From contig CAVRPK010000002.1 in the NCBI GenBank assembly GCA_963723105.1, forward strand, positions 121,098-185,097: a stretch of DNA of 64,000 bases, given 5' to 3'. Of this stretch, positions 19,444-37,806 are shown in pieces. Position 1 is the stretch's first letter. Every line of letters begins with the position of its first letter. Position numbers and translations under genes: made by a program. The notes below the pieces were generated by a model that was given only the letters and a program-made list of their open reading frames with translations, was not told the origin of the DNA and did not search any database. The DNA comes from an uncultured Candidatus Micrarchaeota archaeon. Lineage in GTDB: Archaea; Micrarchaeota; Micrarchaeia; Anstonellales; Bilamarchaeaceae.

Positions 19444-22400
19444 TTACCACATTACTCTAGCAGTACCCATGATTCCCCATCCCATAGGAGCATTCATAAT
19501 TCCAGTAACGCTTTCTTCTTGTCCTGCCCATGGACTGAGTTGTTCTGGGGATGTAACTGAACCTGGTGTTGTTGGCCAGCTTCCTGAGTATCCCATAATA
19601 TGGCCAGATATTATTGTTCCTGGGTCACTACTTCCTGGATCTTGCCTTTCATAGGTTACTCCAAGGCCTCCTCTTAGAACTGGATATGTTTCGTATTCTG
19701 CTGCTGGATGGAGAGATCCCTCTGGTTCTGGACTTGTGGATGCATCTTCAAGCATTCTCCTTCTCTCAGCTCCTCCTTCAAAGAAGAAGTGGAGACTAAG
19801 AGATTCACCAGTAGTGATGTTTGTTCTTGCCCATGTGAGTCCAACTCCTGCAGTGGTTCTTTGAAGTTCATTTAGGTCTGAACACTCCCCTCCGCTTAGC
19901 TGTGAACAAACCTGTGCCATTTCATCAGCGTTTTCAAAGACATCATCACTTGCAAATACTACTTGTCTCGTTGTCTGATTGAAGAATACATATGAGTATA
20001 GCTGTTCGTTTACTCTCTCAGTATTAAGCATTGTAATGCGATGACTTAATCCAACCTGCCAATTGGTCCATTGCTCGTTTCCATATGTTCTCTGGCCATA
20101 TAATACACCTGCAAGAAGATCTTGTCTGTGGTCTTGTAATAATTGTGCAAGTGCGCCTATTGTCCAATTGCCACCTGGGCTATATTGTTCATGACCTGCT
20201 TCGGTAAGAGGTATTGTTAGTCCTCCCATGAGCCTAAATGCTGTCAGTGTTCGAAGTCTTCGATCTCCTGAGAATGTAAATTCGTAATCCTCGCCTTCTG
20301 TTGAAATGTCAAGTCTGCTAACTCCATGTCCAATGTAGTTGCCAGATTCTTCCCATTCATCAAGGTCTTCCTGAGTTCCAATCATGATAGAACCTCTTGA
20401 ATTTGGACCTGTTCCAATTCGGGTTACCATGACGAAATATCTATTTCTTCTCTCTGGACTATCCCCTTCCATTTCTGCATTGAGATGGCTTCCATAGATA
20501 ACATCATATCGTTCTGCCTGCTGTCTTCCATGCGAGTTCAATGCTGCTGCAAGGCAAGGTCTTATGTTCTGTTCAATTATTCTTCGAACTTCAGCTCCAG
20601 TTAATTCTGCTCTTGCTGGTGGCTGCCTGATATTGACTTCAGATAAACTTGCTTCAACGCTTCCGCTTGTTCCTGCTCTTCGTACAAACTCAGTTTCTAC
20701 TTCTTCAGGAGTTTTCAATACCCATCCAAGAGAATGAACATTGTTTTCAATGAGCTGTACTAGTTCTTCTCCATATTCAGTAGCAATGCGTTCTCGGTTT
20801 GGATTAACTCTTCTAAGTTCTCTATATATGTCTACAATTGCTTCTGCAGTTTCACTGCTTCTTCTTGAAGAAATTAACATTGCAAGTGGATCTTCATCCT
20901 CATCAATCATTCTTGCAAGCTCAGTTCTCACTTGTGCAACAGGTCGAATCATCCACTCAAGACCATTTCCTCTCTGTGCATGAACAATATCTGCAAATCC
21001 TTGGCCATAAATTCTTTCCATTCTGTCATGGCTGTATGCAACACTTCCAAGCCTGATGTATGCATCGCGTGCAGCTGCCGAATGATCTGAGGTTCTATGA
21101 AGCGTAACATTGCGCTCATACCTTGACAGTTCAATTGCAGGCCAATCAAGAACTCCAAAGCCCATATATGCATCAATATACGGATTTGCCCTCTCACTTC
21201 TTTGTACTTGGAACCCTCCTGTTGAATCAGGGTCTTCTACAATCATTACTGATGAATGGGTGTATCCATGACCAAGGAGGTCTATGTATGCACGAGCCGG
21301 TCTTCCAAATATAAACATTCCATAAAGATTTGCATATGCTGTTTCATCATCTGTCCATTGTCCTGTTGCAATTGTGTAAATTCTTAATCGCTCTCCATCA
21401 TATCCATAACCAAGTGCAAATCTCCAAATATCACTTGTAAAGTCATTTTGAAGGGAACTTGATAATCCTTGTAGAATCTGTTCTTCGTTTGTTGGATTTT
21501 GCTGAATGTCTAACATTGCCTGGTCTATCCGGTCATACAATCTACTAAATCCAGGAACTCTTTGCACTCCAGCAAGAATTCCATGCCTCCTGGCCCAGTA
21601 TGCCATAAGTAAACTTGCATAATGTTCGTTTGGTGCTTCTGGCTGATCCTCTGCTTCTCCTTGCCAGCCCTCCATTCTTCCATACATGTATGTTCCAGCT
21701 ACTAACCATCCAGTGTCACGAGCCTCGTCTTCTCCCCAACCATACATATTGACAAGAACATTTCTCATTGTTGCAAAAACTTCATCTGATTCCTGATCCA
21801 CTGCTCTGAATTCGCGCAGCAAATCTACTTCAGTATATCCACCAGTAAGTCCATGCCCATATGATCTGTGCGCGCCTGTCTGCCTTTCATATCTCCATCT
21901 GGCACCAGCTGTTAGTGGATATCCACCAACTGCACGGAATTCCATTGATGCTTGTCTTGGAGCAATTGCCATTCTTCTCCACATGAATTCTCCAGAACCT
22001 TCTGCCCAATGTGATCCATCTATACTTGTAGAATCCTCAGGATTCATTTCAAGAATCTGTGCTCCTCTGTAAAATCCTGCATAAATATCCCGAGCTCGTC
22101 CATCTTCAAGAATGTGGGTTACTGCTTGTCCCATGGCCTCCTCAGCATGTTGCGGAGTCATAGTTCCCATATCTCGAACAACTTGTCCAAGTGCAAGAGT
22201 AGTTGAAGTATCCCCTCTAGTAGTTGGAATTGTAAAGCCTACTGCAGCACCATCAAATCCAGCAAGAGCAGATTCTCCGTTAATCTCATTCCAAACTCCC
22301 TGCTCGCGCGCAAGCCTTTCAATTTCATCTGCGCCGGTTTGAGCTTGCTGCTCTGCATTTAGTCCAAGATGTCTTTCTATTAATCTAGTTCTCTCTGCAC

Positions 22401-25400
22401 CTGAAAGTGCTGGTGCAACTGCACTATTTCTTCCTGCAAATCTAAGGCCTGCCAGAATATTTCTGGTATCTGTACTTCCATATAAATAATTGAGTATCTG
22501 TGCGTGCGTATCAATTCCATATGCAAGATCATATGCATTTCCAGTTGATCCATCAATGTAGAAAAGTCTTGTTCTAAGCTGGCTTCTCTCATCCTGCAAT
22601 ACTGCTCCAACTGTGCCAGGAGCAGCTCCTTCTGGAACTGGCGCGCGAAGCTCTGGTGCATGTTCTCCGCCGACTACAACAAGCATATCTCCTCCAGAGT
22701 CTCTTGCAATTCTGGAATATGTTTCAAGAAGTCCACTGTATCTTTCTCTACTTTGCACCTCTCCAGTTTCTTCAGTTGTTTGGTCCGCACCTTCATAATT
22801 GAATCGTATATTCCCTCTTTGCAATCCTACTCCTTCTCCAAATGCAACTGGAATAACTCCAGCAACCCCCACTGGAAGTCCTGCTGCCTGAGCTTCAATA
22901 TCAACATCAGTTTCAGCTGTTTCACTATCTCCAGCCTCTTCTGATTCTACTGCTGTTCTTCTATGAGTTACAACCCCCCGGCCTCGAACTCCCCCAGTAA
23001 TTGCCCTTCCTTGCCCAACTCCTCCAACTGCTGCTACATCTGTTGAAGTTGTATCTGAGTCTGTTGCAGTTGGGATAGTTCCCTCATGACCGTAATAGCC
23101 ACCAACTTCCCAATCATGGCGAAGCCAATAGCTACTATAGTCTATTGGCATCTCACCAAATAATCTTGTTATCTCTCTGATAATTGTGGAAGCTCCAAGG
23201 GCTCCGATTCTATATCTTTGCGGAATTCCGTGTATCATATGTCTTCCAAGTGTTGGGTGCAGCATGTCATACATTCTTGAGAAATATTCAGTTGCACCAG
23301 AATCAAGTCCAAATCTGCTTGGAGGCTCAATCAAACTTCTTGGCATTGTTGGAGATGGGATTAAATTCCAAGGTTGTGCTGCTTGTCCATAAAGTTGTGG
23401 AAGTGGTTCCATTCCTTCCATTTGCAGGAAGTGGGGTCTGTACCTATATCCTTGAGGATTCCATGGACTTTCCATAAGTTGCCTTTCAGGAACTCTTCTA
23501 AGTTCATCCTCCATTCTATTGTGATCATATGTTGCAGTAACTTCTGGAAGTCTCTGTCCAATTCTGGCAAACACTTCAAGGAAGTATTCCCTGTTCCTAT
23601 GTGTGCTGTAAGAAAGAGTAGCTCCTGCTGTTGAGTACATCCTGCTGAATACTGTATTGAACGTTTCAATTCCGGCAACAAGTGTTCTTTCATCCTGTGC
23701 AACACTGATTATTGCTGGAAGAACCTGCAGGATGAATGGACCAACTAAGTATGGGTCTCTTTGACTAATCAATAACAGCGAATTCATTGTTGCCCGCGCG
23801 GCACTTGTTCCGAATTCTGAGCCCAGGCTTCCAATTCTGCCAAGTCCAACTCCAAGGTAAAGCGCATCAATAATCGAGAGTTGGTTTCTAAGGTTTGTTG
23901 CTTCTGCTTCAGTAAATCCTCGTGCATCTTCTGCATCAGAAGCTATTCCACTATCCCGTCTTCCCTGGAGGTATGTGCTCTCAAGCTGGCCATAGAATGT
24001 TCTTCCTGCAGTAATCAAATCTCTTCCTGATTCACTGCTAAGGAAACGTGCAAGGTCTTCTGGAGTTTGAAGTCCGCTTTCTGCAGTTCCTGGCGGAAGA
24101 CTGATACTGTATCTTCTTGCAAGTGTTTGCAGTTGTGAATTTAGAAGGTCCAGATTAATGAAATTTCTAAATAGATAATCATTTGATCCAAACTGGTCTC
24201 TGTAATGGTTAATTGCAAGAGTTAAGTTCGCACCAAGATCATCAGTTGCATTTGCAAAAACAAGAACTCCTTGAAGTCTTGAATAAACTCCTGGAAGAAC
24301 TTCAGCAACATGCCTGAAGTTTTGCATAAATTCTCCACGTGCAACCCCATCTCCTGCTTCAAAGCTTCTGTTTAATTGTTCTAATCGCTCTGCATCAACT
24401 TGTCTTAGGTGCTCAACATCACTAGTACTTAGGTTTTCAAGGAATCTAAGCTGTGCTCGGTTTCTCTCAACCATTTGCACAAATGCTGCTCCATATATTT
24501 GTCTAAGTCCTGCAATTCTTGCAGTTCTCTCTTCTGATGCCGGAGTGTTCAATGCTCCATAAACAGAACCAAGTGCATATAGCAGTTGTTCATCCTGATG
24601 TCTGTATGCTCTGTGAAGAGCAGTAACCACTCTGGTATATGCTTGTGGATATGCGCGGTATAATGATTGTCTTACTGATGCTGGAAGTGCAGTTACTTCT
24701 TCAAGTCCTGCTCTTGCCTCTGCAAGCGGAGCTAAATGCTCTCTTTGTCTTTCCACTGCACTGACAAATCTATCACCATAAAGCTCTACCATCCTCTCTC
24801 TTGTCTCAGTTCCATCAGGACGAGCTATTGCACGATAAACTCTGATCGTTATATTCGCAAACAATACGTTTTGGCCCATTCTCAAATTTTGTTCGCTAGT
24901 GCCAGTTAAATTTTCAAGGAATCCAAGAACTGGTCTGTGATCATTTATCAATCTGACAAATTCAGTTCCATGTCTTCTTTGCACATCCGCTACATTCCCG
25001 CTTCCTCTTGAAATCGCATTGTATGCCGTTCCAAGGTCTCTGCTAAATCCACGGTCTCCCATGCTGGAAATAAATGCTCTAAGCTCTGGATCAGCTCTGC
25101 CAAGTACAGCAAAAATAATATCTCCGATTACTGCTTGCTTGTCTGGATTTGTAACTCCACTGTACCAGGTCATTCCACTTCGAAGCGATCCAACATCGCT
25201 TGAGCTTGCAATTGTTTCTGAAAATCCATCAATACTGCCTGCAGTTCTTGAAAGGTCTCCTCCAGTTTCTGCAAGGTGAATCATTGAAAATGCAAGTTCA
25301 ACTGATCTTCTAAGTTCAGTTCCACTAATCATGCTTTCTTGCAGTGCTCTTTGTTCTGTTAGGAGGGTTTGTATTTCTGCTTGATCAGCACCACCTGCTG

Positions 25401-28065
25401 CAAGCCTTATCCTTCTACTTTCTTCTTCCCACCTATTGATTCTTTCTTCAAGCATTGGACGTGCAGGTGCAAGAATGCTGTGTTCCAGTTGTCTTCTCAT
25501 GCTTTCTAGATCACGTTCAATTGTACTGGAATTTGCTGTGATCTCTCCCCTACTTCCTTCAAGAGCTTCTCCTGATATTCCTCTTGTTCTTGATGCTTCT
25601 CTGCTTGCAACTGGAGTTAAGAAAAATCTTCCAAGCGAATCAATTCCATCCATTCTAGCAAGTCCGCCTCTAGTTAAAGCCTCTCTTCCACTGGCATATG
25701 AAAGAATGAATTGTACTGGAGTAAATGGAAATAGTAATTCTTTTGCTGATCTGGTTATTTGGTCTTGCCCCCGCAAAAGTCGTTGTTCAATACTTGTAAC
25801 ATTTCCGCCTAGCCACTCTAATTGCGCTCTGTTTTGAGTAACAAAATCCACTGCAGCCTGTCCATACTGAGTAACTAATTCTGCTGTAGTTGGACTTGCC
25901 TGTCCATGAGCTGCATAAATTGCATGAAGTGCTCTTGCAAGACCTCCAATTGAATATCCAATTGCTGGTGCTCCTCCTTGAGTAGCCAGTGTATCAGCTT
26001 CACGAACAAACACATCAGATGTTCTTGTTGTCATCTCATGTTCTATTTGTCCTACTGGTCTAACTGCCCAGTGCAATGTATCAAGATTTTGTGAAACATA
26101 ATTCACAAATTCACTACCATATCTTGTAGCAAGCAATTCTCTTGTTTGTCTGAATAATGTAATTTGTGCGTATGCTGCAGATAATGTAGTTCCACCGTCT
26201 TGTGGGAAAAGCGCCTTTAGCTGAACTGCAACCTCATCTGATTCTTCTCCCCTTCCAGGTGCTGATCTTCGATCAAGTTCTGCCTGTACTTCTTCTGGAG
26301 TTCCTGCAAGCCAGGATAGTTCAGCATAATGTTCAGTGATAATTGAGCCTGCTGGAACAGCGCCTATTCCAAGTCGCTCTGTTGCAAGCTGTCCATAAAC
26401 ATCTGCAAGCGCAGCACCTCTGTCAAGTCTTTCTCCGGCTTGCACTCTAATTGTCATTGAAGAAATGCGTCTTGCATGTATGTCTTCTTCGCGTGCTCTA
26501 TCTGTTAATACTCTGTTTAGATCAGTGGCAGTTCTTATCATCCAGGTTGGTCTTCTTGCTGAAACAAGCGCTATTAATTCCGGACTATATGCTGCTCTGA
26601 GTCTGTCCATATCTGGAGGGCTTCTGAGAAGTTCTATGTAAATATCTCTAACTGCGATTGATCTTACGTTTCTTCTGAAATTCATTTCAATACTTGAGAT
26701 TGTAGTATTACCCTGAATTTGCGCTCTATACAATCTTACAAACTCATTGAAGAAAGTATCATTTCTCTCAAGTGGTACTCTGGTGTATGTTCTTGATCCA
26801 ATATCTCCGGTACCCGCAACAAAATTGCCACTATAAATTCTGATAAATTCATCTCTGGCAGTTGTACTTCCAGTTGCAAGCACCTGCTCCATCAAAGTTG
26901 CGCATCTTCTAGCTAGTCCAAGCGAAATAATATCAACAAATCTGTCAACTGTTTCATTTCCATGTGCCTGTCTAAGCGATTGAAGTCTTGAGACATTGCC
27001 TGTGCTTGCAGCTTCATACATTTGCGAAACTGCAGTTGCAAATGCTTCTGGATCTACCTGGTTATTATGGTGAGTATAATATGATCTGTAAACCATGGAA
27101 ATTGGTGATGGCTGTCTATGGCCTTCCTCTCCAACTTGGTCTCTTGTTATGCGCTCCAAAAATAATCTTTGGAATCCTGTCCAGAATTCTCCGGATGTAC
27201 TGTGCGCTCCAAATATTCTTCTAAATTCATCTCTTTGTGCAGTGTCTCCAGTGAGCATAAAGTTTCGAAGAGAATCAACACATCTTGTTGCTTGCTGGTT
27301 TGGTAATTCTCCAGATAAAAGATTAGTTAAATTTTCTCCATGTCGCTCTCTTATCTCAGTAAGCCCTGTTGCTTCGAGTACATGTCTTGCAGCATCTTCT
27401 GCAGTAGCATCTGTATGAGCTCTTCTATATGCTCTGAATCTTCCAATTTCACTTTCTGCTGGAGCCTCTGTTTCTCCTGCTCTCTCTACTCTTTGAACCA
27501 GTGCATCTATCAGTGCCCATGTAGTTGCATTGGCAGCAAGCCTGGTTCTAATCTCACGAACTTTGGTAATAAAATCTTCCATGATAGAAGGTTCCATTCG
27601 AATTCCGATAACGTGATCAAGATCAGCTTCATATGCTTCAAGAATTGGACGAACTTGATCATCTGCTCTCATTGTTGTCATTCTGCTATGAAGCTCATCC
27701 ATAAATTCTCTGTTTTCAGTTACCGGCTGCTCCTGGAATTGACTTGTGATAAGAGCTCTGTATCTTGTATAATCAGCTTCATTTCCTGTTAAAATATAAT
27801 TTTGATATGCGGTTGCAGCATCCCTAGCTCTTTGCTGAAGGCCTGCTACTTCTTCCTGTTCCGCGTGGGTAGCTCCCCTACGTCGAGTTGCCGGTTGTGC
27901 CATAACAGAATTTACTCCGAGATGATTTATATTATTACCGCCTAAGAAAACTGAGACTGCAACTAAAGGCGCAAGCAAATATTTTCCAAAAATAGAACTT
28001 TTTCTGCGGTGCGGTCGCTCTCCATGATCCCCCTTTTGATCATGTTTTATTTTGGATCCAACCAT
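19444..28065 (-). CDS. giant (2873 aa) Lys/Cys-depleted, Arg/Ala/Gly-rich repeat protein with N-terminal signal/anchor; ORFan
   Basis: Uninterrupted 8.6-kb ORF with an ATG start, preceded by GGAGAA 6 nt upstream. The N-terminus has a hydrophobic segment (IFGKYLLAPLVAVSVFLGG...VMAQPATRRR). At least seven diverged tandem modules share the motif YG..FV..V..N...L.WL....P..Q. An Asp/Thr/Gly-rich low-complexity linker lies near residue 1550. There are only a handful of lysines in 2873 residues. Confidence 0.7.
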   Translation of the reverse strand: MVGSKIKHDQKGDHGERPHRRKSSIFGKYLLAPLVAVSVFLGGNNINHLGVNSVMAQPATRRRGATHAEQEEVAGLQQRARDAATAYQNYILTGNEADYTRYRALITSQFQEQPVTENREFMDELHSRMTTMRADDQVRPILEAYEADLDHVIGIRMEPSIMEDFITKVREIRTRLAANATTWALIDALVQRVERAGETEAPAESEIGRFRAYRRAHTDATAEDAARHVLEATGLTEIRERHGENLTNLLSGELPNQQATRCVDSLRNFMLTGDTAQRDEFRRIFGAHSTSGEFWTGFQRLFLERITRDQVGEEGHRQPSPISMVYRSYYTHHNNQVDPEAFATAVSQMYEAASTGNVSRLQSLRQAHGNETVDRFVDIISLGLARRCATLMEQVLATGSTTARDEFIRIYSGNFVAGTGDIGSRTYTRVPLERNDTFFNEFVRLYRAQIQGNTTISSIEMNFRRNVRSIAVRDIYIELLRSPPDMDRLRAAYSPELIALVSARRPTWMIRTATDLNRVLTDRAREEDIHARRISSMTIRVQAGERLDRGAALADVYGQLATERLGIGAVPAGSIITEHYAELSWLAGTPEEVQAELDRRSAPGRGEESDEVAVQLKALFPQDGGTTLSAAYAQITLFRQTRELLATRYGSEFVNYVSQNLDTLHWAVRPVGQIEHEMTTRTSDVFVREADTLATQGGAPAIGYSIGGLARALHAIYAAHGQASPTTAELVTQYGQAAVDFVTQNRAQLEWLGGNVTSIEQRLLRGQDQITRSAKELLFPFTPVQFILSYASGREALTRGGLARMDGIDSLGRFFLTPVASREASRTRGISGEALEGSRGEITANSSTIERDLESMRRQLEHSILAPARPMLEERINRWEEESRRIRLAAGGADQAEIQTLLTEQRALQESMISGTELRRSVELAFSMIHLAETGGDLSRTAGSIDGFSETIASSSDVGSLRSGMTWYSGVTNPDKQAVIGDIIFAVLGRADPELRAFISSMGDRGFSRDLGTAYNAISRGSGNVADVQRRHGTEFVRLINDHRPVLGFLENLTGTSEQNLRMGQNVLFANITIRVYRAIARPDGTETRERMVELYGDRFVSAVERQREHLAPLAEARAGLEEVTALPASVRQSLYRAYPQAYTRVVTALHRAYRHQDEQLLYALGSVYGALNTPASEERTARIAGLRQIYGAAFVQMVERNRAQLRFLENLSTSDVEHLRQVDAERLEQLNRSFEAGDGVARGEFMQNFRHVAEVLPGVYSRLQGVLVFANATDDLGANLTLAINHYRDQFGSNDYLFRNFINLDLLNSQLQTLARRYSISLPPGTAESGLQTPEDLARFLSSESGRDLITAGRTFYGQLESTYLQGRRDSGIASDAEDARGFTEAEATNLRNQLSIIDALYLGVGLGRIGSLGSEFGTSAARATMNSLLLISQRDPYLVGPFILQVLPAIISVAQDERTLVAGIETFNTVFSRMYSTAGATLSYSTHRNREYFLEVFARIGQRLPEVTATYDHNRMEDELRRVPERQLMESPWNPQGYRYRPHFLQMEGMEPLPQLYGQAAQPWNLIPSPTMPRSLIEPPSRFGLDSGATEYFSRMYDMLHPTLGRHMIHGIPQRYRIGALGASTIIREITRLFGEMPIDYSSYWLRHDWEVGGYYGHEGTIPTATDSDTTSTDVAAVGGVGQGRAITGGVRGRGVVTHRRTAVESEEAGDSETAETDVDIEAQAAGLPVGVAGVIPVAFGEGVGLQRGNIRFNYEGADQTTEETGEVQSRERYSGLLETYSRIARDSGGDMLVVVGGEHAPELRAPVPEGAAPGTVGAVLQDERSQLRTRLFYIDGSTGNAYDLAYGIDTHAQILNYLYGSTDTRNILAGLRFAGRNSAVAPALSGAERTRLIERHLGLNAEQQAQTGADEIERLAREQGVWNEINGESALAGFDGAAVGFTIPTTRGDTSTTLALGQVVRDMGTMTPQHAEEAMGQAVTHILEDGRARDIYAGFYRGAQILEMNPEDSTSIDGSHWAEGSGEFMWRRMAIAPRQASMEFRAVGGYPLTAGARWRYERQTGAHRSYGHGLTGGYTEVDLLREFRAVDQESDEVFATMRNVLVNMYGWGEDEARDTGWLVAGTYMYGRMEGWQGEAEDQPEAPNEHYASLLMAYWARRHGILAGVQRVPGFSRLYDRIDQAMLDIQQNPTNEEQILQGLSSSLQNDFTSDIWRFALGYGYDGERLRIYTIATGQWTDDETAYANLYGMFIFGRPARAYIDLLGHGYTHSSVMIVEDPDSTGGFQVQRSERANPYIDAYMGFGVLDWPAIELSRYERNVTLHRTSDHSAAARDAYIRLGSVAYSHDRMERIYGQGFADIVHAQRGNGLEWMIRPVAQVRTELARMIDEDEDPLAMLISSRRSSETAEAIVDIYRELRRVNPNRERIATEYGEELVQLIENNVHSLGWVLKTPEEVETEFVRRAGTSGSVEASLSEVNIRQPPARAELTGAEVRRIIEQNIRPCLAAALNSHGRQQAERYDVIYGSHLNAEMEGDSPERRNRYFVMVTRIGTGPNSRGSIMIGTQEDLDEWEESGNYIGHGVSRLDISTEGEDYEFTFSGDRRLRTLTAFRLMGGLTIPLTEAGHEQYSPGGNWTIGALAQLLQDHRQDLLAGVLYGQRTYGNEQWTNWQVGLSHRITMLNTERVNEQLYSYVFFNQTTRQVVFASDDVFENADEMAQVCSQLSGGECSDLNELQRTTAGVGLTWARTNITTGESLSLHFFFEGGAERRRMLEDASTSPEPEGSLHPAAEYETYPVLRGGLGVTYERQDPGSSDPGTIISGHIMGYSGSWPTTPGSVTSPEQLSPWAGQEESVTGIMNAPMGWGIMGTARVMW

Positions 28066-28303: not shown

Positions 28304-30724
28304 TTAAAGTCCTCTTAGTACTCTTCGCTGTTGTCTTCTTTCTGGTTGTGCTGGTGCAGTTTGAGCTGGTGCTTGCTGCTCTTCAAGAGTTATTCCCTCA
28401 ATTCCGCGTGCCCAATGTCCTGCTGGCCTTGTTCTATTTCTTTGTCTCCATGAATACACTGCAAGAGCTGTAAGTGCTTGCGCGCTTTCACGTCCATCTG
28501 CTGTTAGTGTATCTGTTGTTCCTGAAAACACTTGTCTATTTAGTATTCTCAAATCTTCTGCAAGTCTTTGATTTGTTTCTCCAGTAAGTCCTGCAACATG
28601 ATTGACAAATGCTACCATTGCTTCAATCATTAGTCTTCGATCTCCAGCAGGTGTAGTTTCGCTGAGCCTGACAGCTGGCCTTGTTACTGGTTGATACCTT
28701 GTTTGTCCTGCTGCCCAAGTGTGAAATGCTCGTCCTACAGGAGTACTTGCATCATGGAAAAGTTCATTGAAGGCTCTATCAAATGCTCTTGAGAGATCAT
28801 CTCTGTTTAGATGCCTCAGTGCTCTTTCAAAGACTGGTGTAGTAGAACTTCCATGAACAGTTGAGGCAACATCAGTAGGAAGCCTTAAGATAGATACAAT
28901 TCCTTCTGGCCTTCCTGTTTGTACTGCCCTAAACAATTCGACCTGGAGGTTTTGCCAATGCCTGTGTGCATGTTCTTCAAGCGGAGTTCGTTGTGGCTGT
29001 GCTGGCTGGGCGGTTCTTGCTACTGCTCTTTGCCAGACTGCCTGCTGAATCAATCTTCCAATTTCATTTCTTCCTCTTAAATTTGGATGAAGGTGATCTC
29101 CACGAGGGCTATCATATTCTGGTCTTAGCGTTGCCGGGGTTCCGGTTCCAAGTGATGAGGACAAGTCAACAAATATAATATCTGTTCTCTGGCGAAGCCA
29201 TGCATCAATTGCATCTGCTCTTCTTTGAGCAGCTACACTCCATCTGGGGTATGTCGCATAAGGCGGGCTTCCCCAAACAACTGGTAACACTCCTGCACTA
29301 TGCGCTCTTGCAATCATTGTCTCTAAATTACCTTGAACTGTTTCAAGTGATCTTCCGTCATTTACAATTACTGCTCCTGATATTACTACTATGTTCGGCT
29401 GTCCACGTCCTCCGATTCTATGGCCATTATATCTTCTTAGAACTCCTGACATTGCCTCTCCTGAAACACCATCAGATTCAACGCGTGCACTTGGAACATC
29501 TCTTCTAAGAAGTCTTTGCAGTTCCCTTCCAACTGCTCCTCCCGCAGTAAGTGAAGCTCCAACAATCAGTACATTTGGATTTGCAAGAGCAGCTGCGTAT
29601 CTGCTCATATCAAGACCAGTTTGAGCCTCTGCAACTCTTGTTGGTGCTGCTGGTTGCGCTTCCGGAATCTCAAGAACTTCAGGAGCTTGCCAGGTTGCAA
29701 TTCTACTTTGTGCTCTTCCGCGTCCGCGTGCTGGATGCTCCTGATACCATCTTCTCATATATAGTGATGAGCTTGTGATCGTATCTGCATCCATTGGACT
29801 GCTAAGGTATGCTCTTTGGAAAACCAATCTCACTTCCTCTCTATCTGCATCTTGCTCTGGAGTTCGAACCAAATCAACATGTGCAAGTCTTCCATGTTCT
29901 GTATCTTGATTAGTTAGAAGCTGGCTTATCTCTTGTCTAAATCTCGTGTTTCCACCATTTGGACGCGCTTCAAAATGCATCAAATAATATCTAATATAGA
30001 AATTAGCAGCTCTAATTACCGGATCACTTGCATCTGCTGCAAGAGTTCCACTACTTGCAGTAATTGCACTTTGAAGCCTTGTGAAATCCGCATTAGTTCC
30101 AGCTTGTGATGAGAGATATAATCTGAATCTTGGAATCTGCAATAATTCATTGAAAACAGAAACTGTTGTTGCTCTTTGATTAGGTGTTCCGGCGGCGCTT
30201 CCTGCTCTTTCTCCTGTAGTTAGGAACTGCTCAATATATCTGGAGTTTGTATGAAGCGCGCTTGCAGCACCTGTAGCTGCTCTGTCCGAGCCTCTGGAAT
30301 TTCTAAGCTGCGTTTCTATCCATTGTGCGGAAATTGTAGGCCTTGGAGCTTCTCGTGGCGGCGGAGTAGGTGGTCTTGCTGCCGGAGTTCTCTCCCGTGG
30401 AGGTCTGCTTCTTGGCGGCCTTGATCTTGGCGGCGGAGTAGTTCTTCTTTCTGTTCCGCCTCCTCCTGTTTCTTCTCTTGCGCCTGGATGCAATTGCCTG
30501 AAGATGCCACTTGCAATACTTCTAGCAGAACCAATCCGTTCAAATGCAGCTGCATCAGCATCAGGAGCTCCTCCTATACCTACATTAATTGCTCTTCTGA
30601 CTTTTCCAGTCAATTGTGGAATTGTGTCCTCTATACTAAAAGTAATTCCAGTAACTCTTCTCCATCCACTTGGCCCAACTACGACCAATGTATTTCCCTG
30701 AAGTTCTACTCTTGCACCTGCCAT
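28304..30724 (-). CDS. 806-aa protein with central SGNH/GDSL-hydrolase-like domain (approx 29047-29578) and N-proximal Pro/Arg-rich linker (approx 30337-30439); Lys-depleted
   Basis: The SGNH hydrolase blocks are recognisable: block I VLIVGASLTAGG (GDS(L)-type nucleophile Ser), block III VIVNDG (GxND), block V DHLHP (DxxH catalytic dyad). The linker reads PPPRSRPPRSRPPRERTPAARPPTPPPREAPRP. Its start ATG overlaps the stop of the 2360-aa gene in a TAATG arrangement. Confidence 0.6.
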   Translation of the reverse strand: MAGARVELQGNTLVVVGPSGWRRVTGITFSIEDTIPQLTGKVRRAINVGIGGAPDADAAAFERIGSARSIASGIFRQLHPGAREETGGGGTERRTTPPPRSRPPRSRPPRERTPAARPPTPPPREAPRPTISAQWIETQLRNSRGSDRAATGAASALHTNSRYIEQFLTTGERAGSAAGTPNQRATTVSVFNELLQIPRFRLYLSSQAGTNADFTRLQSAITASSGTLAADASDPVIRAANFYIRYYLMHFEARPNGGNTRFRQEISQLLTNQDTEHGRLAHVDLVRTPEQDADREEVRLVFQRAYLSSPMDADTITSSSLYMRRWYQEHPARGRGRAQSRIATWQAPEVLEIPEAQPAAPTRVAEAQTGLDMSRYAAALANPNVLIVGASLTAGGAVGRELQRLLRRDVPSARVESDGVSGEAMSGVLRRYNGHRIGGRGQPNIVVISGAVIVNDGRSLETVQGNLETMIARAHSAGVLPVVWGSPPYATYPRWSVAAQRRADAIDAWLRQRTDIIFVDLSSSLGTGTPATLRPEYDSPRGDHLHPNLRGRNEIGRLIQQAVWQRAVARTAQPAQPQRTPLEEHAHRHWQNLQVELFRAVQTGRPEGIVSILRLPTDVASTVHGSSTTPVFERALRHLNRDDLSRAFDRAFNELFHDASTPVGRAFHTWAAGQTRYQPVTRPAVRLSETTPAGDRRLMIEAMVAFVNHVAGLTGETNQRLAEDLRILNRQVFSGTTDTLTADGRESAQALTALAVYSWRQRNRTRPAGHWARGIEGITLEEQQAPAQTAPAQPERRQQRRVLRGL

Positions 30725-33700
30725 TATTGTCGCCTCGATCTATGTGCTCTTGCATATCCATGGATATGATTTCTATATGCAGTTCTAGCTCCTCTTGCGC
30801 TAAATGAAACTGTCATATCAGCTCCTTCTCCTTCAACTGTTATTCCAAGAGATCTCCTCAGTCTAGCTGATCTATCAGATGTTCCAGTTATTATTCTATA
30901 TATATCCGCCTTTATCTCTGTTCGAGCATGTGCTCTATTTGCTTGTTGCGCGCTTTCAATTCCTTCCTGGTCTTCTCCAAATGCTGCTCTCATCACAACA
31001 CCATCACCGCGCCTTCTTGTGCCTTCACCCTCAACATCATTAAACAACGCGTCGATTCTAGCATCAATAAATTCAGCTATTTGAACTCCACCGCGCTCTT
31101 CACTTTGATAAAAGCTTTGGGCCTCTGGACTAAGTCCAACTGTTGGAGCTCTTTCTACTTCTGCAGGCTCTTCGGTTTCTTCATCCTGTTGCTCTGCAGG
31201 CTGCCTTGTTTCAAAGCCTGGCCTTCTTGGATATCTTGGCCTTTCTTCTTCTTCAAGCACTTCTGCGCGCGTTCTACCTGCATCTGTTCTTCTTGGAGTT
31301 GAACTTCTAGCATCTCCTCTGCTTCTTCGTTCTGCTCCACCTGCTCGTTCTCTCATTTCAACTGGGGTTGATCCACTCCACCAGCCTCTTGATCTATAAT
31401 AACCTGATTGCCTATCGAGATACTCGTAGATTGCCTGAGGGGCCATGTCTTGAGTTTGTGCATTTGCTTGAATGTGCCTTAGAATTTCATGTAAATTTTC
31501 GATCTGATGGCCATTATCTGCCATCCACTTCATTACTCCATTTGTAGCTCGTCCTCCGCGCATTTCAGTATGAGTTGTTGCAAATGCAATTGCTTCTGCA
31601 TATTCACTGCCTCGAAGCGCTCCATCCATCTGAGCAAATATCCTAGGTGCAACTTGTCCGCTTTCTCTTGCAGTTGCAAGTGCTGTTCCAGGGTTTTCTG
31701 CAATCAAGGTTGCAAGTGCATTTAAGTCTCCGTAAATCTCTTCACCAAATTCTCCTTCAGTGAGGTTGAATCTGTTGAATGCACGAAGAGCAGCAGTGTT
31801 GCTTTCATATGTTCGAAGTAGTGACTCTAGTGTTGTTCTTACACTCGGATCCGTACAAGCTCTTCGATCAAGATTTCCTAGGAATGAATTCTGTGCAATT
31901 GCCGTTCCAAGATAGAGGTTTTCATCTGTTAAAAGTCCTCGAAGAACTTGCGCTCTTCTTGCAGGAGTAAGAGTGACAAGAGAACTAATGCTTGTTCTGT
32001 TTGCTTCAGAAGAAAGTTCACTAATTACATTATCTAAATATACTACTGGTATATGTCCCTGCTGGACTCCCATCCAGACAAATGCAAATGCGCTCGGGTT
32101 ATTGTGAAGGAATTCAATCATTCTTGCATGTTCTGCATTTGGTCTTCCTGCTTGGATTTCAGCAGGCGTAATTACTCCAGCATCAGCAAGCAGCTGAGTT
32201 GCAGCTCCTTCTGCAAATGACATCACAATTCCTCGCTCTCTCCATTGTGACATTCTAAGATCTGCCATGTCTGTAATGTCAAGATGCTCTTTGCGTTCAC
32301 TTACCAAAGTCGCATCAACCATCTCAAGACTTATTCCCCAGGGCTGAATTATTGCAAGCAATTCACGCTCTGCTTCAGTACGATCTGCACTTCCTTCAGC
32401 AGCAGTTCTTCTGGTATCAAGCAACTCATTGATATCTTCAAGTCGTCCTGTCATCTCTCTGCCATCAGTGAGGAACTCATTCATTCTTCTTGGATTCAGG
32501 TAGTGTCCGCTTCCTTCAAGAAGTGCTGTCAACTGTTCCTGGTTCCCAGGTCTTCTGTCAGTTGATTGTGGAAGGGTATTTGGCAGATGGAAATAGAACT
32601 GCCTTCCTTCTTCAGTGTCTGTTATCCAGAGTGCATTTTCTTCTGAAATGGAAATTCCAAAATCTCTTTGTGCTATTGCAATACCTTGTCTGATTTCATC
32701 TTCATTGGAAAGCATGTCATGAAGCGGACTATAAATAAATCTCCAGCCAAGATATCCTGCTCCTGCCCATGTTGCAATCTGTGGCACCATCCTCACTGAA
32801 TTTGATGGCCTGAGCATTGCATAAGGCACTGATCCTCCAGCTGCTCTTGCTGATTGGATCGCTCTGTAATACTGCATTCCCCCCCAGTGAGTCAATGGAA
32901 AATGTGCTCTTGTTCCAGTTGCCCTATGTCCAAATACCCATCTCCATGCTCCTGTTGCATACTCTCCTACTGTTCCGCGCACTGTATGCGAAGCCTCTCT
33001 TGCAAGTATTCCTGCCTGCTCTGAAATTCCAGGTATAAGCTGTTCCATTCTTGGATTTGATATTCCTATTGCATGGAAGTTTGCACGCATCTCAGCAGTT
33101 CTTACAGATCTGAGCATTCTGGCCAGTGGGGTTCCCATATCAAAGACTACTTCGATATTTCCTCCTTCACCAATTGCCTGCTCGAATATTCTTCTCTGCT
33201 GCGGTCCATAATTCTCCCGGACTGCTCTTCCAACTCTTTCACTTCGAAGGACAGTTGCGATTGCATCATCAAGATTTCCTCCCTGTAGCATTTGCTCTGA
33301 AATCCCTCTTCGAACTGCCTGCGCAACAGGATCTCCTTCTGCAGAAATTCTTCCAATCATGCTTCTTGTTGAATTTCTAAGTGTAAGTCCTTCTGCAATT
33401 ATCACATCTCCGGAAATTGCTCCTCTGCCTTCAAGTTGCAATAATAATGCAGCACGATCTCCGGCACTAAATTCTGTTCCAAGAAGTCTTTCAGTTTGTG
33501 CAAGCGGTCGCAATGCTGCTCTTTGGTCTCTTGTTTGCTGAACCAATTGCTGATTCTGTTCAAATGCTGTTTCATGGGCTGTGTTTGCTCTCTCGTGTGC
33601 TGCTTCAAGTCTAGCTAGTCTTCTTCCTGTTACTCCTCTTGTTCTTGCTGCTTCAAGGTTTACTCTTGCTGTTTCAAGAGCTTGTCCAGTCCTCTGGGCT

Positions 33701-36700
33701 ACTGCTTCAGAAGCTGCAAGGCTACTTTCAATCTCTGCAAGCCTTGCTGCTGCACCACGCTCTGTTGCTTCTACTATTAATGTCACTTCTTCAGTTGTAA
33801 ATGGTCTTGCATCAGTAAGTTCCATATATGCATCTGCAGTTCTACTGCTTCCAGCAGCCTGTCTTATTGATCCTTGTGTTCTTGCAAGTGCTCTTGCAAG
33901 TGCAGGATCACTTCTTGCTGCTGCTTCAAGATGGGGTCTGAGGTTTGGAGACGAATAAAGCTTTCTCAAAACTCCAAGATATCCTTCCCTTGTTCCTCTT
34001 CCTGCGCTTGTTGCCATTCTGTCTATTCTGACAAACAAGTCAATTGATCGCTGCACGCTGTTTCTTGCCATATTTGCAACTTCAGTTGCTTCTGCCCTTG
34101 CCTGCAGTGCTGTACGTTGTGCTGCCTGGACCTCAGCTGCAGGTGCTCCAGCTTCTGTCAGTGTCCTGAAATTTGCTTCTGCTCTTTCTGCTACTCTATT
34201 CGCTCTTCCAATTACAACATTGACTTCTTCCGGAGTCATGGTAATGTCTGAGATTATGTCACTCATTCTTGTCTGAGCATCTTCTATGATCCTGTCTGCA
34301 TTTGGAGGTTCTGCTGGATTTCTTCTTGCTGCTCTTGTTGCCCTCCAATCACGGAGCCTTCCAACTACTCTTCTATATAATAGTGTTCCTCTGCCAATCT
34401 GTCTTGGCTGCTCTCCTGGCCGAAGTATCCCTGATTCTAATGCTTGTGCATTGAGCTCTGCCTGCTGGCTATCTACTGCGCCTGGCTCTCTTACTCCAGT
34501 TGGTTCTCTTGGTGTGCCTCCAGTTCGTCTTTCACCACCACTTACTCTTCTGCTTGCTCCACCTGCCGGTGCTCCAGTTCCAGGAGGAGTTCCTGATGGG
34601 GGAGTACTTGCACTTGCTCGAATTGGTGGCATGGTTGTTTCGCCAGTTATTCTTGGCTGTCCTGGAACTTCAATAACATATTCTGTTCCAGTACCTGTTC
34701 TAATAATCTCAAATTCCATGGTTGCTTCTGCAGCATGTGCTTCAGTAATCACTTCATCCGGAACAGCTCTTCTAAGAGGTCCTGGTGCTTCAGGAGTTCC
34801 GAATTCCCTTAGTATTGCACGAGTTGAGAATGGTGTGTCTATTCCAGTATCAAGCGCATGCCTTACTGCTCTGTTTTGAAGAAGCACATCTATTCTGGCA
34901 GCTGCTTGTGGATGTTCTGCTCTTATTGCTTCAAGCCTTGCACGGGCTGCGATCATACTGCTTGTTCTTGCTTCTGCTGGAGTTGCTTCAAACCCTGCAA
35001 GCTCTCCAAGGAATGATCTGAATCGCTCTGGATTTGAAATAAATGATGCAAGATCGCGAAGTGGTCTCATTCCTCCTCCAGGTCCTCCTGGCGGAGTTGG
35101 GAATTCCAAACCTCTAATTCCGCGCACAAGTGCTGCTTCTGCAAGTTGATTTAATTCCCCTCCGCGAAGTGCTGTTCTTATTGCGCCCTGTCTCATAAGC
35201 TGAGAAATTTGGATTCTAAGTCTTGATGAAAAACCTCCGAAAATTTCAAGTGCAATCGGATTCTGTGCGCGAAGTAGTCTCATGAACCTGAACATTGTAC
35301 TTGGGTTTCCAAGTTCGCGTGCTCCTAATACTTCTGGCGGAGCTTCTCCAAATTCTGCTGCAAATTCTCTTGCATAAATTCTTGCTTGGCCTCTTGCTGA
35401 TCTTATAGCAATTGCCCTTCTAGCAGCAGATCCTCCCATTAGTGCCCATGGGAAAAGTCCAAGTCCGATCATAAGAGCTGCATTTGTAGTATCTCCTCTT
35501 TGATATGCCTGATATCCATGATAGAATGCATATCCTGAGAAGAACGTTGCAATTCCAAGATTCGCAACATTCAATCCAGTTGCAACTCTTGAGAGTCTTA
35601 TTGCATGGGTAGTTGCACCAGCTGCCCGGGCTGCAAGTGCAGCACGACCTACTCTTGCAGCAGCACCCATCATCCCAAGGCTTACTACTACAAGTCCTGC
35701 CATTGCCCAGCTTTCTGCTGATGCATGGCCATGAACTCTGTATTCAGTTACAATTTGTTCAGCTGCCATTCCAAGGAATATTGCTCCTGAAACATATGGA
35801 CCAACTACTGGAATAAATGCAGCTGCAAGTCCAGCGCCAATTAATGCCCACTGAAGTGCCTGCTGATTTCTTTGAACTGTTTGCTGCATTACTGTAAGTA
35901 TTGATTGTGCTCTCTCAAGTGCAGCTGTTGCCACTTCGCCCTGACTTTCGTAAGCATGACGAAGCTGGCTTAGCACTTCACTTTGCGCTCTTGCATAATC
36001 AGTAGTTATCTGAGCTGCTCCGCTTTGAGGAATTGCAAATATTGAAGTTTCAAGAAGAGTTGCAATTTGTCCTCTTCTATTGAGCTCATCATCGCTAAGG
36101 TTTCCAAATAGGATTTGATGGAATGCACTCAAATGCGCAGATCTATAAAATTCAAAACCCTGCATTCTTCGCTGTTCATCATAAGCAGTTCTAACTGCTT
36201 GTCTTCCACCAAGAGCTTGTGCGAGTCCTGGCGCTCTAGCAAACAAAATTTGTGTTGCCATCGGAGAGTTTTCTGCCAGGTATCCCATCAAAGCTTCTTG
36301 TCTGCTTGAGATTGCCTGCATGTAAGCTTGCTCTGCATCTTCAAAATTATTTATCAGCATTGCTCTTCTTGCTGCAATTAATTGATCTTGGCACTGGACT
36401 AATCTTGCTCCAGTTCGCGCAGCTACTTCCCCACTTGTAGTTAGCACAACTTGCCTGTATTGTTCGTTAAGAGCAAGCTGTCCATTTAGAACTGCAAATG
36501 CACGTGCAATTCTCGCTTCCCTGCTAACTTCTCCAAGGAATTCTCCAAGTTGCTGTTCTGGGAATGCTCCGTTTAATCCCTGCAATTGTTCAAAGAAAGC
36601 AAGTGCCTCACCAGCTAGATGCGGCATCACATATGTTGAAGTTGCCTGTAGCGAACTGATATAATGAATGAGGGCAGTTCTTCTTGCTTCAAGTCTTGTT

Positions 36701-37806
36701 ATTGCAGCTCGCCTTGGTGCAAGATCTCTTGCTGATGGTGCAGCTACTCCTTCTGGAACATTATCATAGAGTCCGCCAATTTCTACAAGCATTCTATTTA
36801 CTTCAAGAAGCCTGTCTCTTGCGCTCTGAAGATTTTGCTGTCTTAGTGTTCCTGCTGTAACATGCCCTAGTCTTGTATTGAATCTGTCAACTACGCGATT
36901 GAACTCTGCCATATTTCCTGTTGTAGCAGCAACTCTAAGTTGTCTTGTGAGTTGCCTTAGGGTTCTCTGTCCGCGAAGCCTTGGATCAGTTCCAGCAAAG
37001 TCTCTTTCGTATCGTCGAACATCAGCAAGAGCAACATATCCTTCATATCTTCCCCCTGTTCTTGTTCCAAGAGGCAATTGCCCTCTGGTATCTGTCTGTC
37101 CGGCAACCCAATCCTGCCTTCCCATGATTCTCTCTTCAAGCTGATGCGCTCTTGTTAGAAGAATTTCGGTATTTGCAATTCTTGCTGAGCCTGAATCAAA
37201 CCTTTCAGCTGCAGCAGTATGTTGTTCCAGTGTTTGTGCATTGACTTCCATTTCAATTGCTTCAAGCATCTCCTGTCTTCCTTGCACATAACCTGGAGTT
37301 CTCTGTCCAAAGCTGGTTGAAAATAATCCATATCTCCATCCTTCTCTTTGTCTGCTTTCTGCAGTTCCATAATAGTCTCTGGCATATTGAAGCAGAATGT
37401 GCGCTCCTTGGAAATCTCCTTGTCTTGCCCTATCTCTTGCTACTGCAAGTGCATCTTGTATCCCATCTTGCCCAATTTCTCTTCCTGCAATTGATCTTTC
37501 AATTCTTCCTGCTTCGCGTCTTACATATGCATTTTGTGCAGCTGCATAACTTTCTACAAATCTCTGTTCAATAGGCTCTCCAGCAAGTGTGAATCTTCCT
37601 CCTCTTGCATATTCAATTATCCGTTCCATTCCCTGAAGGAAGGCTGCATCGGATTCTGCTACTGATGTTATTCTTCCGCTTCTTCGAACTCCAAGTCTTT
37701 CAACTGCTTCGCTATACATTGCAATAAATGTCAAAACTCTTCTTGCTCTTGTAAGGTTTCCCTGTTCAATAAGATCATCAATATGACGCAAGCGTTTCAG
37801 TTGCAA
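30724..37806 (-). CDS. giant (2360 aa) Lys/Cys-depleted protein with internal hydrophobic four-helix core (approx 35409-35859); ORFan
   Basis: Uninterrupted 7.1-kb ORF. The start as called is TTG (the first ATG is 29 codons downstream). Residues approx 650-800 form four hydrophobic helices (LIGAGLAAAFIPVVGPYVSGAIFLGMAA ... AMAGLVVVSLGMMGAAA ... LNVANLGIATFFSGYAFY ... ALMIGLGLFPWALMGG) embedded in an otherwise highly charged Arg/Ala/Glu-rich polypeptide. A Pro/Thr/Gly-rich low-complexity tract lies near residue 1020. Confidence 0.7.
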   Translation of the reverse strand: MQLKRLRHIDDLIEQGNLTRARRVLTFIAMYSEAVERLGVRRSGRITSVAESDAAFLQGMERIIEYARGGRFTLAGEPIEQRFVESYAAAQNAYVRREAGRIERSIAGREIGQDGIQDALAVARDRARQGDFQGAHILLQYARDYYGTAESRQREGWRYGLFSTSFGQRTPGYVQGRQEMLEAIEMEVNAQTLEQHTAAAERFDSGSARIANTEILLTRAHQLEERIMGRQDWVAGQTDTRGQLPLGTRTGGRYEGYVALADVRRYERDFAGTDPRLRGQRTLRQLTRQLRVAATTGNMAEFNRVVDRFNTRLGHVTAGTLRQQNLQSARDRLLEVNRMLVEIGGLYDNVPEGVAAPSARDLAPRRAAITRLEARRTALIHYISSLQATSTYVMPHLAGEALAFFEQLQGLNGAFPEQQLGEFLGEVSREARIARAFAVLNGQLALNEQYRQVVLTTSGEVAARTGARLVQCQDQLIAARRAMLINNFEDAEQAYMQAISSRQEALMGYLAENSPMATQILFARAPGLAQALGGRQAVRTAYDEQRRMQGFEFYRSAHLSAFHQILFGNLSDDELNRRGQIATLLETSIFAIPQSGAAQITTDYARAQSEVLSQLRHAYESQGEVATAALERAQSILTVMQQTVQRNQQALQWALIGAGLAAAFIPVVGPYVSGAIFLGMAAEQIVTEYRVHGHASAESWAMAGLVVVSLGMMGAAARVGRAALAARAAGATTHAIRLSRVATGLNVANLGIATFFSGYAFYHGYQAYQRGDTTNAALMIGLGLFPWALMGGSAARRAIAIRSARGQARIYAREFAAEFGEAPPEVLGARELGNPSTMFRFMRLLRAQNPIALEIFGGFSSRLRIQISQLMRQGAIRTALRGGELNQLAEAALVRGIRGLEFPTPPGGPGGGMRPLRDLASFISNPERFRSFLGELAGFEATPAEARTSSMIAARARLEAIRAEHPQAAARIDVLLQNRAVRHALDTGIDTPFSTRAILREFGTPEAPGPLRRAVPDEVITEAHAAEATMEFEIIRTGTGTEYVIEVPGQPRITGETTMPPIRASASTPPSGTPPGTGAPAGGASRRVSGGERRTGGTPREPTGVREPGAVDSQQAELNAQALESGILRPGEQPRQIGRGTLLYRRVVGRLRDWRATRAARRNPAEPPNADRIIEDAQTRMSDIISDITMTPEEVNVVIGRANRVAERAEANFRTLTEAGAPAAEVQAAQRTALQARAEATEVANMARNSVQRSIDLFVRIDRMATSAGRGTREGYLGVLRKLYSSPNLRPHLEAAARSDPALARALARTQGSIRQAAGSSRTADAYMELTDARPFTTEEVTLIVEATERGAAARLAEIESSLAASEAVAQRTGQALETARVNLEAARTRGVTGRRLARLEAAHERANTAHETAFEQNQQLVQQTRDQRAALRPLAQTERLLGTEFSAGDRAALLLQLEGRGAISGDVIIAEGLTLRNSTRSMIGRISAEGDPVAQAVRRGISEQMLQGGNLDDAIATVLRSERVGRAVRENYGPQQRRIFEQAIGEGGNIEVVFDMGTPLARMLRSVRTAEMRANFHAIGISNPRMEQLIPGISEQAGILAREASHTVRGTVGEYATGAWRWVFGHRATGTRAHFPLTHWGGMQYYRAIQSARAAGGSVPYAMLRPSNSVRMVPQIATWAGAGYLGWRFIYSPLHDMLSNEDEIRQGIAIAQRDFGISISEENALWITDTEEGRQFYFHLPNTLPQSTDRRPGNQEQLTALLEGSGHYLNPRRMNEFLTDGREMTGRLEDINELLDTRRTAAEGSADRTEAERELLAIIQPWGISLEMVDATLVSERKEHLDITDMADLRMSQWRERGIVMSFAEGAATQLLADAGVITPAEIQAGRPNAEHARMIEFLHNNPSAFAFVWMGVQQGHIPVVYLDNVISELSSEANRTSISSLVTLTPARRAQVLRGLLTDENLYLGTAIAQNSFLGNLDRRACTDPSVRTTLESLLRTYESNTAALRAFNRFNLTEGEFGEEIYGDLNALATLIAENPGTALATARESGQVAPRIFAQMDGALRGSEYAEAIAFATTHTEMRGGRATNGVMKWMADNGHQIENLHEILRHIQANAQTQDMAPQAIYEYLDRQSGYYRSRGWWSGSTPVEMRERAGGAERRSRGDARSSTPRRTDAGRTRAEVLEEEERPRYPRRPGFETRQPAEQQDEETEEPAEVERAPTVGLSPEAQSFYQSEERGGVQIAEFIDARIDALFNDVEGEGTRRRGDGVVMRAAFGEDQEGIESAQQANRAHARTEIKADIYRIITGTSDRSARLRRSLGITVEGEGADMTVSFSARGARTAYRNHIHGYARAHRSRRQ

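Follow-up and report, generated by a model that had tools for sequence, protein, structure and literature searches.

A Micrarchaeota scaffold protein with an optional, exchangeable SGNH hydrolase module, encoded between two giant lysine-poor proteins

Introduction

What a single esterase-like domain does between two giant proteins of no recognizable kind is the question raised by one locus of a Candidatus Micrarchaeota archaeon. The locus lies in a 64,000-nucleotide stretch of contig CAVRPK010000002.1 (positions 121,098 to 185,097; assembly GCA_963723105.1), hereafter called the window, to which coordinates refer unless another locus is named; every window feature given with coordinates is on the minus strand. 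An open reading frame (ORF) at 28304-30724 encodes a protein of 806 residues, the middle protein, which consists of a scaffold and an SGNH module and is flanked by two very large proteins, giant A and giant B. An initial annotation described in it an SGNH/GDSL-type esterase fused to a Pro/Arg-rich linker. The domain is the only handle on an otherwise unrecognized, conserved cluster that fills about 24 kb of a very small genome. To our knowledge, very few candidate molecular machines for host contact and exploitation are known in DPANN archaea.

The bare SGNH call is ordinary, because an orthologue with 91% identity already carries the public NCBI name "SGNH/GDSL hydrolase family protein". What is new is the block pattern of a second subtype, termed subtype B; a slot in which the module is present or absent, duplicated, or swapped; the unrecognizable scaffold and giant proteins that accompany it; and the exclusion of lysine. 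No description of the cluster was found in the literature on giant, large, or lysine-poor proteins of Micrarchaeota or DPANN archaea, and a 2025 paper on the comparative genomics of Micrarchaeota does not mention esterase, GDSL, or giant proteins.

The SGNH Hydrolase Domain

Residues 373-567 of the middle protein (29024-29608) form an SGNH/GDSL hydrolase domain of subtype B, as recognized by Pfam, Foldseek, and a family profile. The Pfam profile PF13472 (Lipase_GDSL_2) matches residues 388-551 with 40.3 bits (E 6.3e-10), above its gathering cut-off of 32.9 bits, and the match covers profile positions 2-175 of 178. Deeper homologues also match PF00657. In an AlphaFold2 model, strands and helices alternate across the domain, as expected for a three-layer α/β/α fold, and Foldseek aligned it to more than 40 solved SGNH enzymes with a probability of 1.00 and template modeling (TM) scores of 0.6-0.81, normalized to the target. 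A profile built from 43 family members matched the PDB entry 4ppy across the whole domain (E 1.3e-20), and all 60 PDB matches of this profile were confined to the SGNH segment. The initial assignment of the domain is therefore upheld.

Four sequence blocks supply the predicted catalytic residues. Block I (GASLT, residues 389-393; 29546-29560) contains Ser391, the predicted nucleophile, whose codon occupies 29552-29554. In block II (GVSGE, residues 419-423; 29456-29470), which the initial annotation did not list, Gly422 is predicted to contribute a backbone NH to the oxyanion hole, and it aligns with the block II Gly of 7c2d and 7c2a. Block III is extended (S449-G450-A-V-I-V-N455-D456-G457; 29354-29380) and includes the VIVNDG string at residues 452-457. 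Block V (DHLHP, residues 543-547; 29084-29098) provides Asp543 and His546, predicted to serve the triad as acid and base, respectively, and its D543-H-L-H546 aligns with the DxxH of 4ppy and 7c2d. The initial annotation had read these blocks as consensus in order and spacing. The order I, II, III, V is as described, but two blocks depart from the consensus: block I has Ala where G-D-S has Asp, and block III reads S449-G450-x4-N455-D456 instead of G-x-N-D, which widens the Gly-Asn spacing by two to three residues.

Conservation, Subtypes, and Selection

The catalytic positions are widely retained in the family. All 36 family modules have the Ser, 35 keep the His, 32 the Asp, and 28 the Gly of block II. 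Profile support for the fold and conservation of Ser and His, the two points on which the initial assignment had been made to depend, were thus both found. The residue before the Ser separates the modules into A-S (11 modules) and D-S (21-22 modules). Subtype A is canonical and combines G-D-S with Q-G-G-[VI]-N. Subtype B combines G-A-S with [IV]-S-G-x4-N-[DE], and the extended block III occurs in 9-10 modules. Members of subtype B are the window protein and P0001-P0004, together with P0017, P0019, P0024, P0040, and P0041, the last five sharing less than 40% identity with the window protein. Asn455 is conserved throughout subtype B, and because the pattern recurs at such distances, this residue is constrained. 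Subtype B is thus a second, conserved subtype and not a product of decay. Among 83 matches to stand-alone SGNH proteins, the extended block III was found once, in P0059 (L020 49-816), where it reads ISGLTIVN.

The ratio of nonsynonymous to synonymous substitution rates (dN/dS) in the window clade is 0.13-0.20 for the SGNH module and 0.06-0.13 for the helical domains of the scaffold. The module is therefore under purifying selection, somewhat weaker than that on the helical domains. It also evolves faster than the scaffold (dN 0.18 versus 0.08 between the window protein and P0002). Decay to a pseudo-enzyme was rejected on the basis of the dN/dS values and the retained catalytic residues, and the domain is probably catalytically active.

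The nearest stand-alone relatives of the module (P0056, P0059, P0061, P0065, and P0075) carry N-terminal signal peptides that end in a lipobox-like Cys. These lipobox-type export signals hint at an extracytoplasmic ancestry of the module. The contig of P0056 also carries an archaeal-type phosphoenolpyruvate carboxylase.

An Optional and Exchangeable Module

An exhaustive profile search over 1.84 billion representative sequences returned about 60 representatives that bear the scaffold. In about 17 of about 47 full-length representatives the SGNH module is missing, and the N-terminal helical domain (helN) runs straight into the C-terminal one (helC), as judged from hidden Markov model architectures. 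These members occupy at least eight separate places on a neighbor-joining tree of the scaffold, a rough tree from which the count is approximate. One of them, P0011, is still located between the same two giants. That about a third of the representatives lack the module and yet keep this position rules out the esterase as the system's core activity and argues that the module is an optional accessory of the scaffold protein. The opposite case is P0041, a protein of 901 residues from a JGI metagenome, which has two tandem SGNH modules in the slot, one of each subtype (G-A-S/S-G-x4-N and G-D-S/G-G-x-N).

The module is also exchanged between related loci. Loci L008 and L002 share 95-98% nucleotide identity on both flanks and 50-60% across the module only, and the breaks fall within the flanking linkers. 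At the protein level, the scaffolds are 97% identical and the SGNH modules 66%. The L002 module is nearest to that of another lineage, P0009 (72%). An identity drop confined to the module, together with this affinity to P0009, identifies the event as recombinational cassette exchange.

Architecture of the Middle Protein

The remainder of the middle protein is a scaffold that frames the module. Residues 1-80 (30485-30724) are modeled as a β/α domain of three strands and three helices with predicted local distance difference test scores (pLDDT) of 83-97, for which no relative was detected. This domain is followed by the disordered, Pro/Arg-rich linker 1 (residues 83-126; 30347-30478), which contains the PPPRSRPP stretch. 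Model and alignment then define helN (residues 133-330; 29735-30328), the best-conserved part of the protein, with 22% invariant columns and the motifs FRLYLSS, MDADT, and YxRRW. A second disordered linker (residues 333-369; 29618-29728) tethers the SGNH module on its upstream side and is the zone of the recombination breakpoint in relatives. Downstream of the module lies helC (residues 581-762; 28439-28984), modeled with pLDDT of about 88-98, which likewise has no detected relative. A fold search of the scaffold against BFVD gave nothing at E 0.001 or better. The β/α domain, helN, and helC thus make up the core of a new helical scaffold protein without detectable relatives. Neither a signal peptide nor a transmembrane segment was found in the middle protein.

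This layout revises the picture of an esterase lying directly behind a Pro/Arg linker. The segment originally delimited (29047-30439) encodes residues 96-559 in frame, beginning within the Pro/Arg stretch and ending shortly after DHLHP, and the esterase is not fused to that linker because helN, 200 residues long, stands between them. Nor is linker 1 the 35-residue PRSRPP repeat that had been proposed; it has just two adjacent copies inside a low-complexity spacer, and Tandem Repeats Finder detected no tandem repeat in the linker DNA. The linker varies among homologues in length and sequence, and Lys-normal homologues have Lys/Pro/Glu-rich spacers instead. The Arg-rich character noted initially is confirmed by 100 Arg against 1 Lys in the whole protein and an isoelectric point of 11.0.

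The protein ends in a disordered, Pro/Gln-rich tail (residues 763-806; 28304-28438) closed by a conserved RR-V-L-x-x-x. In nearly all family members the extreme C-terminus (28304-28330 in the window) keeps the motif [RK]-R-R-[VT]-[IL]-x-x, which could be a docking or sorting peptide.

The Giant-Protein Cluster

Giant A is followed by the middle protein and then by giant B in each of the 15 loci examined, and both flanking proteins were homologous to the giants of the window. Giant A has about 2,900 residues and giant B about 2,800-3,100. Across the examined loci, the middle gene starts directly next to the end of the giant A gene or overlaps with it; in the window, its ATG overlaps the giant A stop codon by 1 nt.

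Giant B (19444-28065; 2,873 residues) is Lys-poor and begins with a signal- or anchor-like segment that is conserved among orthologues. About eight dispersed copies of a motif of about 30 residues, roughly YG-x-E-F-V-x2-V-x2-N-x3-L-x-W-[LV], occur in giant B and are kept in the orthologue consensus. Giant A (30724-39479), also Lys-poor, has conserved hydrophobic segments in mid-protein. In the window it is split over three frames, with segments 39479-38964, 38995-37790, and 37821-30727 in the ORFs 38952-39479, 37778-39013, and 30724-37806, respectively. Its orthologue in L001 (82-92% identical) is a single ORF of 2,888 residues.

Upstream of giant A, the window encodes a protein of about 104 residues (39483-39794) and one of 1,253 residues with normal Lys content (39917-43678). 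Where the contig allows (L001, L002, L004, and L008), proteins of about 105-128 and about 1,250-1,400 residues are likewise found upstream of giant A.

The two giants of the window and 19 orthologues had no match in Pfam, PHROG, PADLOC, or PDB sequences, so the SGNH domain is, as first stated, the sole recognizable one of the cluster. Several weak candidates were dismissed. Searches of PDB sequences with phmmer and profiles gave ULP1 for the giants at E 0.099, with no stretch passing alone. Membership in the LXG/WXG polymorphic toxins was not accepted, as LXG in the 1,253-residue neighbor reached 17.7 bits against a cut-off of 26.5, again with no stretch passing alone. A phage or defense system was also rejected: PADLOC returned no match, PHROG gave just a weak "lipase" on the SGNH segment (E 1.9e-4), and BFVD no fold match.

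The cluster appears to belong to Micrarchaeota. A genome scan with a 12-sequence alignment gave 11 matches, all in metagenome-assembled genomes of Micrarchaeota. Carriers of the family are Micrarchaeota of sediment, soil, and marine origin, and the closest homologues are labeled Candidatus Micrarchaeota (DPANN); one metagenomic family member is labeled Ca. Iainarchaeum. The window itself is archaeal, since genes for eIF-6, fibrillarin, CDC48, and geranylgeranyl reductase, among others, flank the cluster; HMG-CoA synthase and FtsY are also encoded outside it. Two further features of the window are recorded here. The signal recognition particle (SRP) RNA at 54309-54565 (minus strand) matches the Rfam model Bacteria_large_SRP (66.8 bits) and not an archaeal SRP model, though the window is otherwise archaeal. 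A ThyX (PF02511) ORF at 11968-13572 (minus strand) encodes 534 residues, roughly double the normal length, and is matched in two stretches; it could be a duplicated or fused ThyX.

Lysine Exclusion

The middle protein and both giants nearly lack lysine. The giants contain 0.2-0.35% Lys and the other ORFs of the window 4-14%. Over 19444-39479, which comprises giant B, the middle protein, and the giant A fragments, K/(K+R) is 0.01-0.09, compared with 0.5-0.9 in the other ORFs. Half of the ten giant B lysines are located in the first 28 residues (27982-28065), the n-region before the hydrophobic signal or anchor, and the remaining five are spread over about 2,845 residues. Arg codons in the cluster are mostly AGA, one transition from AAA. 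In related loci (within L001-L019), all three proteins have K/(K+R) values of 0.00-0.05 over a range of GC content at third codon positions (GC3) of 0.24-0.90, and in L018 (GC3 0.79) all three are Lys-normal. Lys content co-varies among giant A, the middle protein, and giant B. Switches of the Lys state recur across the family tree: P0025, for one, contains no lysine, and its sister P0028 contains 51.

Mutational bias was rejected as the cause of the lysine poverty, which holds over the whole GC3 range, and the Lys-normal L018 has a GC3 of 0.79. The GC content of the cluster (0.42-0.47 versus about 0.38) had raised the possibility of a foreign origin by horizontal gene transfer. This was also discarded because the GC3 of 0.23-0.24 is the same as in the rest of the window; the excess is due to Arg, Ala, and Gly content. 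The composition points to selection against lysine common to the three proteins, and this shared exclusion supports a common compartment or complex for them. Two further Lys-poor ORFs occur outside the cluster, at 61402-62535 (minus strand; R 8.8%, K 1.6%) and at 51513-52556 (minus strand; R 7.8%, K 3.2%), the latter with no Pfam match.

Comparison with Known Systems

Solved members of PF13472 are the closest reference for the module. They include the Bacteroides "putative acylhydrolases" 4ppy, 4iyj, 4hf7, and 3p94, the polyvinyl-alcohol esterase 9kr0/9kr1, and the acetylxylan esterase PbeAcXE (7tog/7toh), and the Bacteroides proteins have no assigned substrate. The window module shares with these enzymes the α/β/α fold, the block order I, II, III, V, the triad positions, and the length of about 190 residues. 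It differs from them in its G-A-S and S-G-x4-N-D blocks, and sequence identity is 20-23%. In addition, it is embedded on two flexible linkers in a protein whose other residues, about 600, have no known relative. E. coli TesA (thioesterase I/protease I/lysophospholipase L1) belongs to the same superfamily and has the same catalytic blocks, with a Foldseek target TM score of 0.64-0.73. Unlike the middle protein, TesA is a small periplasmic single-domain enzyme. The TesA equivalog NF007819 of NCBIfam (cut-off 270 bits) did not match the window protein, for which NCBIfam as a whole returned nothing, and relatives scored 20-38 bits.

Polymorphic toxins likewise pair a conserved scaffold with an enzymatic module that can be exchanged, and the breakpoints at the module borders in the window family are a similar feature. 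The differences are that the module is internal and not C-terminal, that the swap is between homologous SGNH alleles, and that no immunity gene is evident. A second analogy is offered by the SPEARE proteins of Nanohaloarchaeota, which are very large, have both a membrane anchor and a hydrolytic domain, and have been proposed to act in host attachment and invasion (PMC6642349). The likeness, very large DPANN proteins with an anchor and a hydrolase, is one of lifestyle only. SPEARE is one polypeptide with laminin-G/adhesion, serine protease, and restriction-endonuclease domains (PMC6642349), whereas the window cluster has three separate proteins and its giants have no recognizable domain. The searches, none of which was aimed at SPEARE proteins, revealed no homology to them.

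Proposed Function and Alternatives

The explanation that we favor, with reasonable though not high confidence, is that the middle protein is the slot-bearing scaffold subunit of a Micrarchaeota giant-protein cluster and that its SGNH module is an accessory, lineage-variable esterase, which likely acts on an acetyl ester of a glycan or polymer. The cluster comprises, in order, the protein of about 1,250 residues, that of about 105 residues, giant A, the middle protein, and giant B. The disordered linker between helN and helC serves as a slot for zero, one, or two SGNH modules of the two subtypes; in the window, it holds one subtype B module on tethers of about 37 and 12 residues. Ser391 is predicted to attack the ester carbonyl, with His546 as general base and Asp543 orienting His546. 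Stabilization of the oxyanion would come from the backbone amides (NH) of Ser391 and Gly422 together with the side chain of Asn455, whose loop exceeds the usual length by two residues. Hydrolysis of the acyl-enzyme, or transfer of its acyl group, would follow. The scaffold would most likely dock the enzyme onto the giants, in an apparatus that is probably membrane-associated.

With respect to the substrate, the most likely class is glycans or polymers that carry short acyl (acetyl) esters, rather than acyl lipids. The best solved relatives are the Bacteroides acylhydrolases, the polyvinyl-alcohol (acetate) esterase, and PbeAcXE. The lipobox-type signals of the nearest stand-alone proteins lean in the same direction. 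Archaeal membrane lipids are ether-linked and lack acyl esters, and the ether-linked membranes of this archaeon and of a presumed archaeal host thus weaken a reading as lipase or phospholipase.

Several points weigh against this explanation. Giant A is interrupted by two frameshifts (37790-37821 and 38964-38995), each a 1-nt insertion relative to L001; they may be real or assembly errors, so this genome may encode a defective apparatus, unless the fault lies in the assembly. The model, built from 12 sequences, has a pLDDT of just 50-67 around blocks III and V. At 20-23% identity, the likeness to acetyl esterases does not fix specificity. Because the middle protein lacks a signal peptide or transmembrane helix, its module could face the cytoplasm, a compartment in which glycan esters are a less obvious target. 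Finally, a complex with the giants is suggested solely by synteny, gene overlap, and shared composition.

Three other explanations compete with the slot-bearing scaffold. The module may be directed at a host, with the giants as a surface, contact, or penetration apparatus of the episymbiont and the SGNH cassette, as its host-specific enzymatic tip, removing O-acyl groups from glycans or lipids of the host envelope during attachment or breaching, close to what the initial annotation had suggested. Variation, recombination, and repeated loss and gain are the pattern of an arms race or a specificity determinant, and the faster evolution of the module relative to the scaffold fits as well. The conserved signal- or anchor-like N-terminus of giant B, the conserved hydrophobic segments of giant A, and the exported lipobox proteins among the nearest stand-alone relatives also favor such a role, and very large proteins of another DPANN lineage have been proposed for attachment and invasion (PMC6642349). 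Swapping and loss of the module would then track host range. We regard both the role and this correlate as possible but doubtful, because the middle protein lacks an export signal, searches of 19 giant orthologues detected no domain for adhesion, pore formation, or other interaction with a host, and one family member in three manages without the module. The absence of a signal peptide or transmembrane segment and the translational coupling to giant A agree with a cytoplasmic enzyme for housekeeping or maturation, either a TesA-like thioesterase, lysophospholipase, or protease I or an enzyme that processes or de-acylates the giants during assembly. Family members and stand-alone relatives do show a weak NCBIfam likeness to TesA/lysophospholipase L1, and JGI labels some homologues "lysophospholipase L1-like esterase". 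These TesA scores are, however, far under the cut-off, the closest structures are acetyl-ester or unassigned acylhydrolases and not TesA, and housekeeping leaves cassette exchange, two subtypes, and repeated loss unexplained, so that this alternative seems unlikely.

The Ala in place of the Asp of G-D-S and the non-canonical spacing of block III in the window clade, in a module that many lineages dispense with, could also mean that it is a pseudo-enzyme kept as a ligand-binding or spacer domain. The Asp of GDS, however, does not belong to the catalytic residues of SGNH enzymes. Essentially all modules, including those of subtype B, retain the Ser, His, and Asp of the triad, Asn455 is conserved over deep divergences within that subtype, and the dN/dS of the module is low (0.13-0.20). 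A dead structural or binding module is accordingly the explanation to which we attach very little probability.

Significance and Perspectives

The favored reading, a scaffold subunit with an accessory esterase, concerns a system that is tractable. The domain of about 200 residues can be cloned and its catalytic residues are predicted. Natural controls are available as SGNH-less, double-SGNH, and swapped-SGNH variants, and the compositional signature is sharp, with low K/(K+R) across the full GC3 range of the family and one lineage back to normal.

A bolder and, in our estimate, rather improbable extension is that the five genes encode one apparatus in which the scaffold subunit joins the two giants, whose fold has no known counterpart, and carries in its slot a swappable esterase matched to the host or substrate, that strong, GC-independent selection excludes lysine from it, and that it is possibly shared with related DPANN lineages. 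If this were true, lysine exclusion might protect the apparatus from Lys-directed attack by a host or the environment, for instance by ubiquitin-like tagging, Lys-specific proteolysis, or cross-linking, and the cluster would represent a new type of machine at the symbiont-host interface that bears its own signature of evasion.

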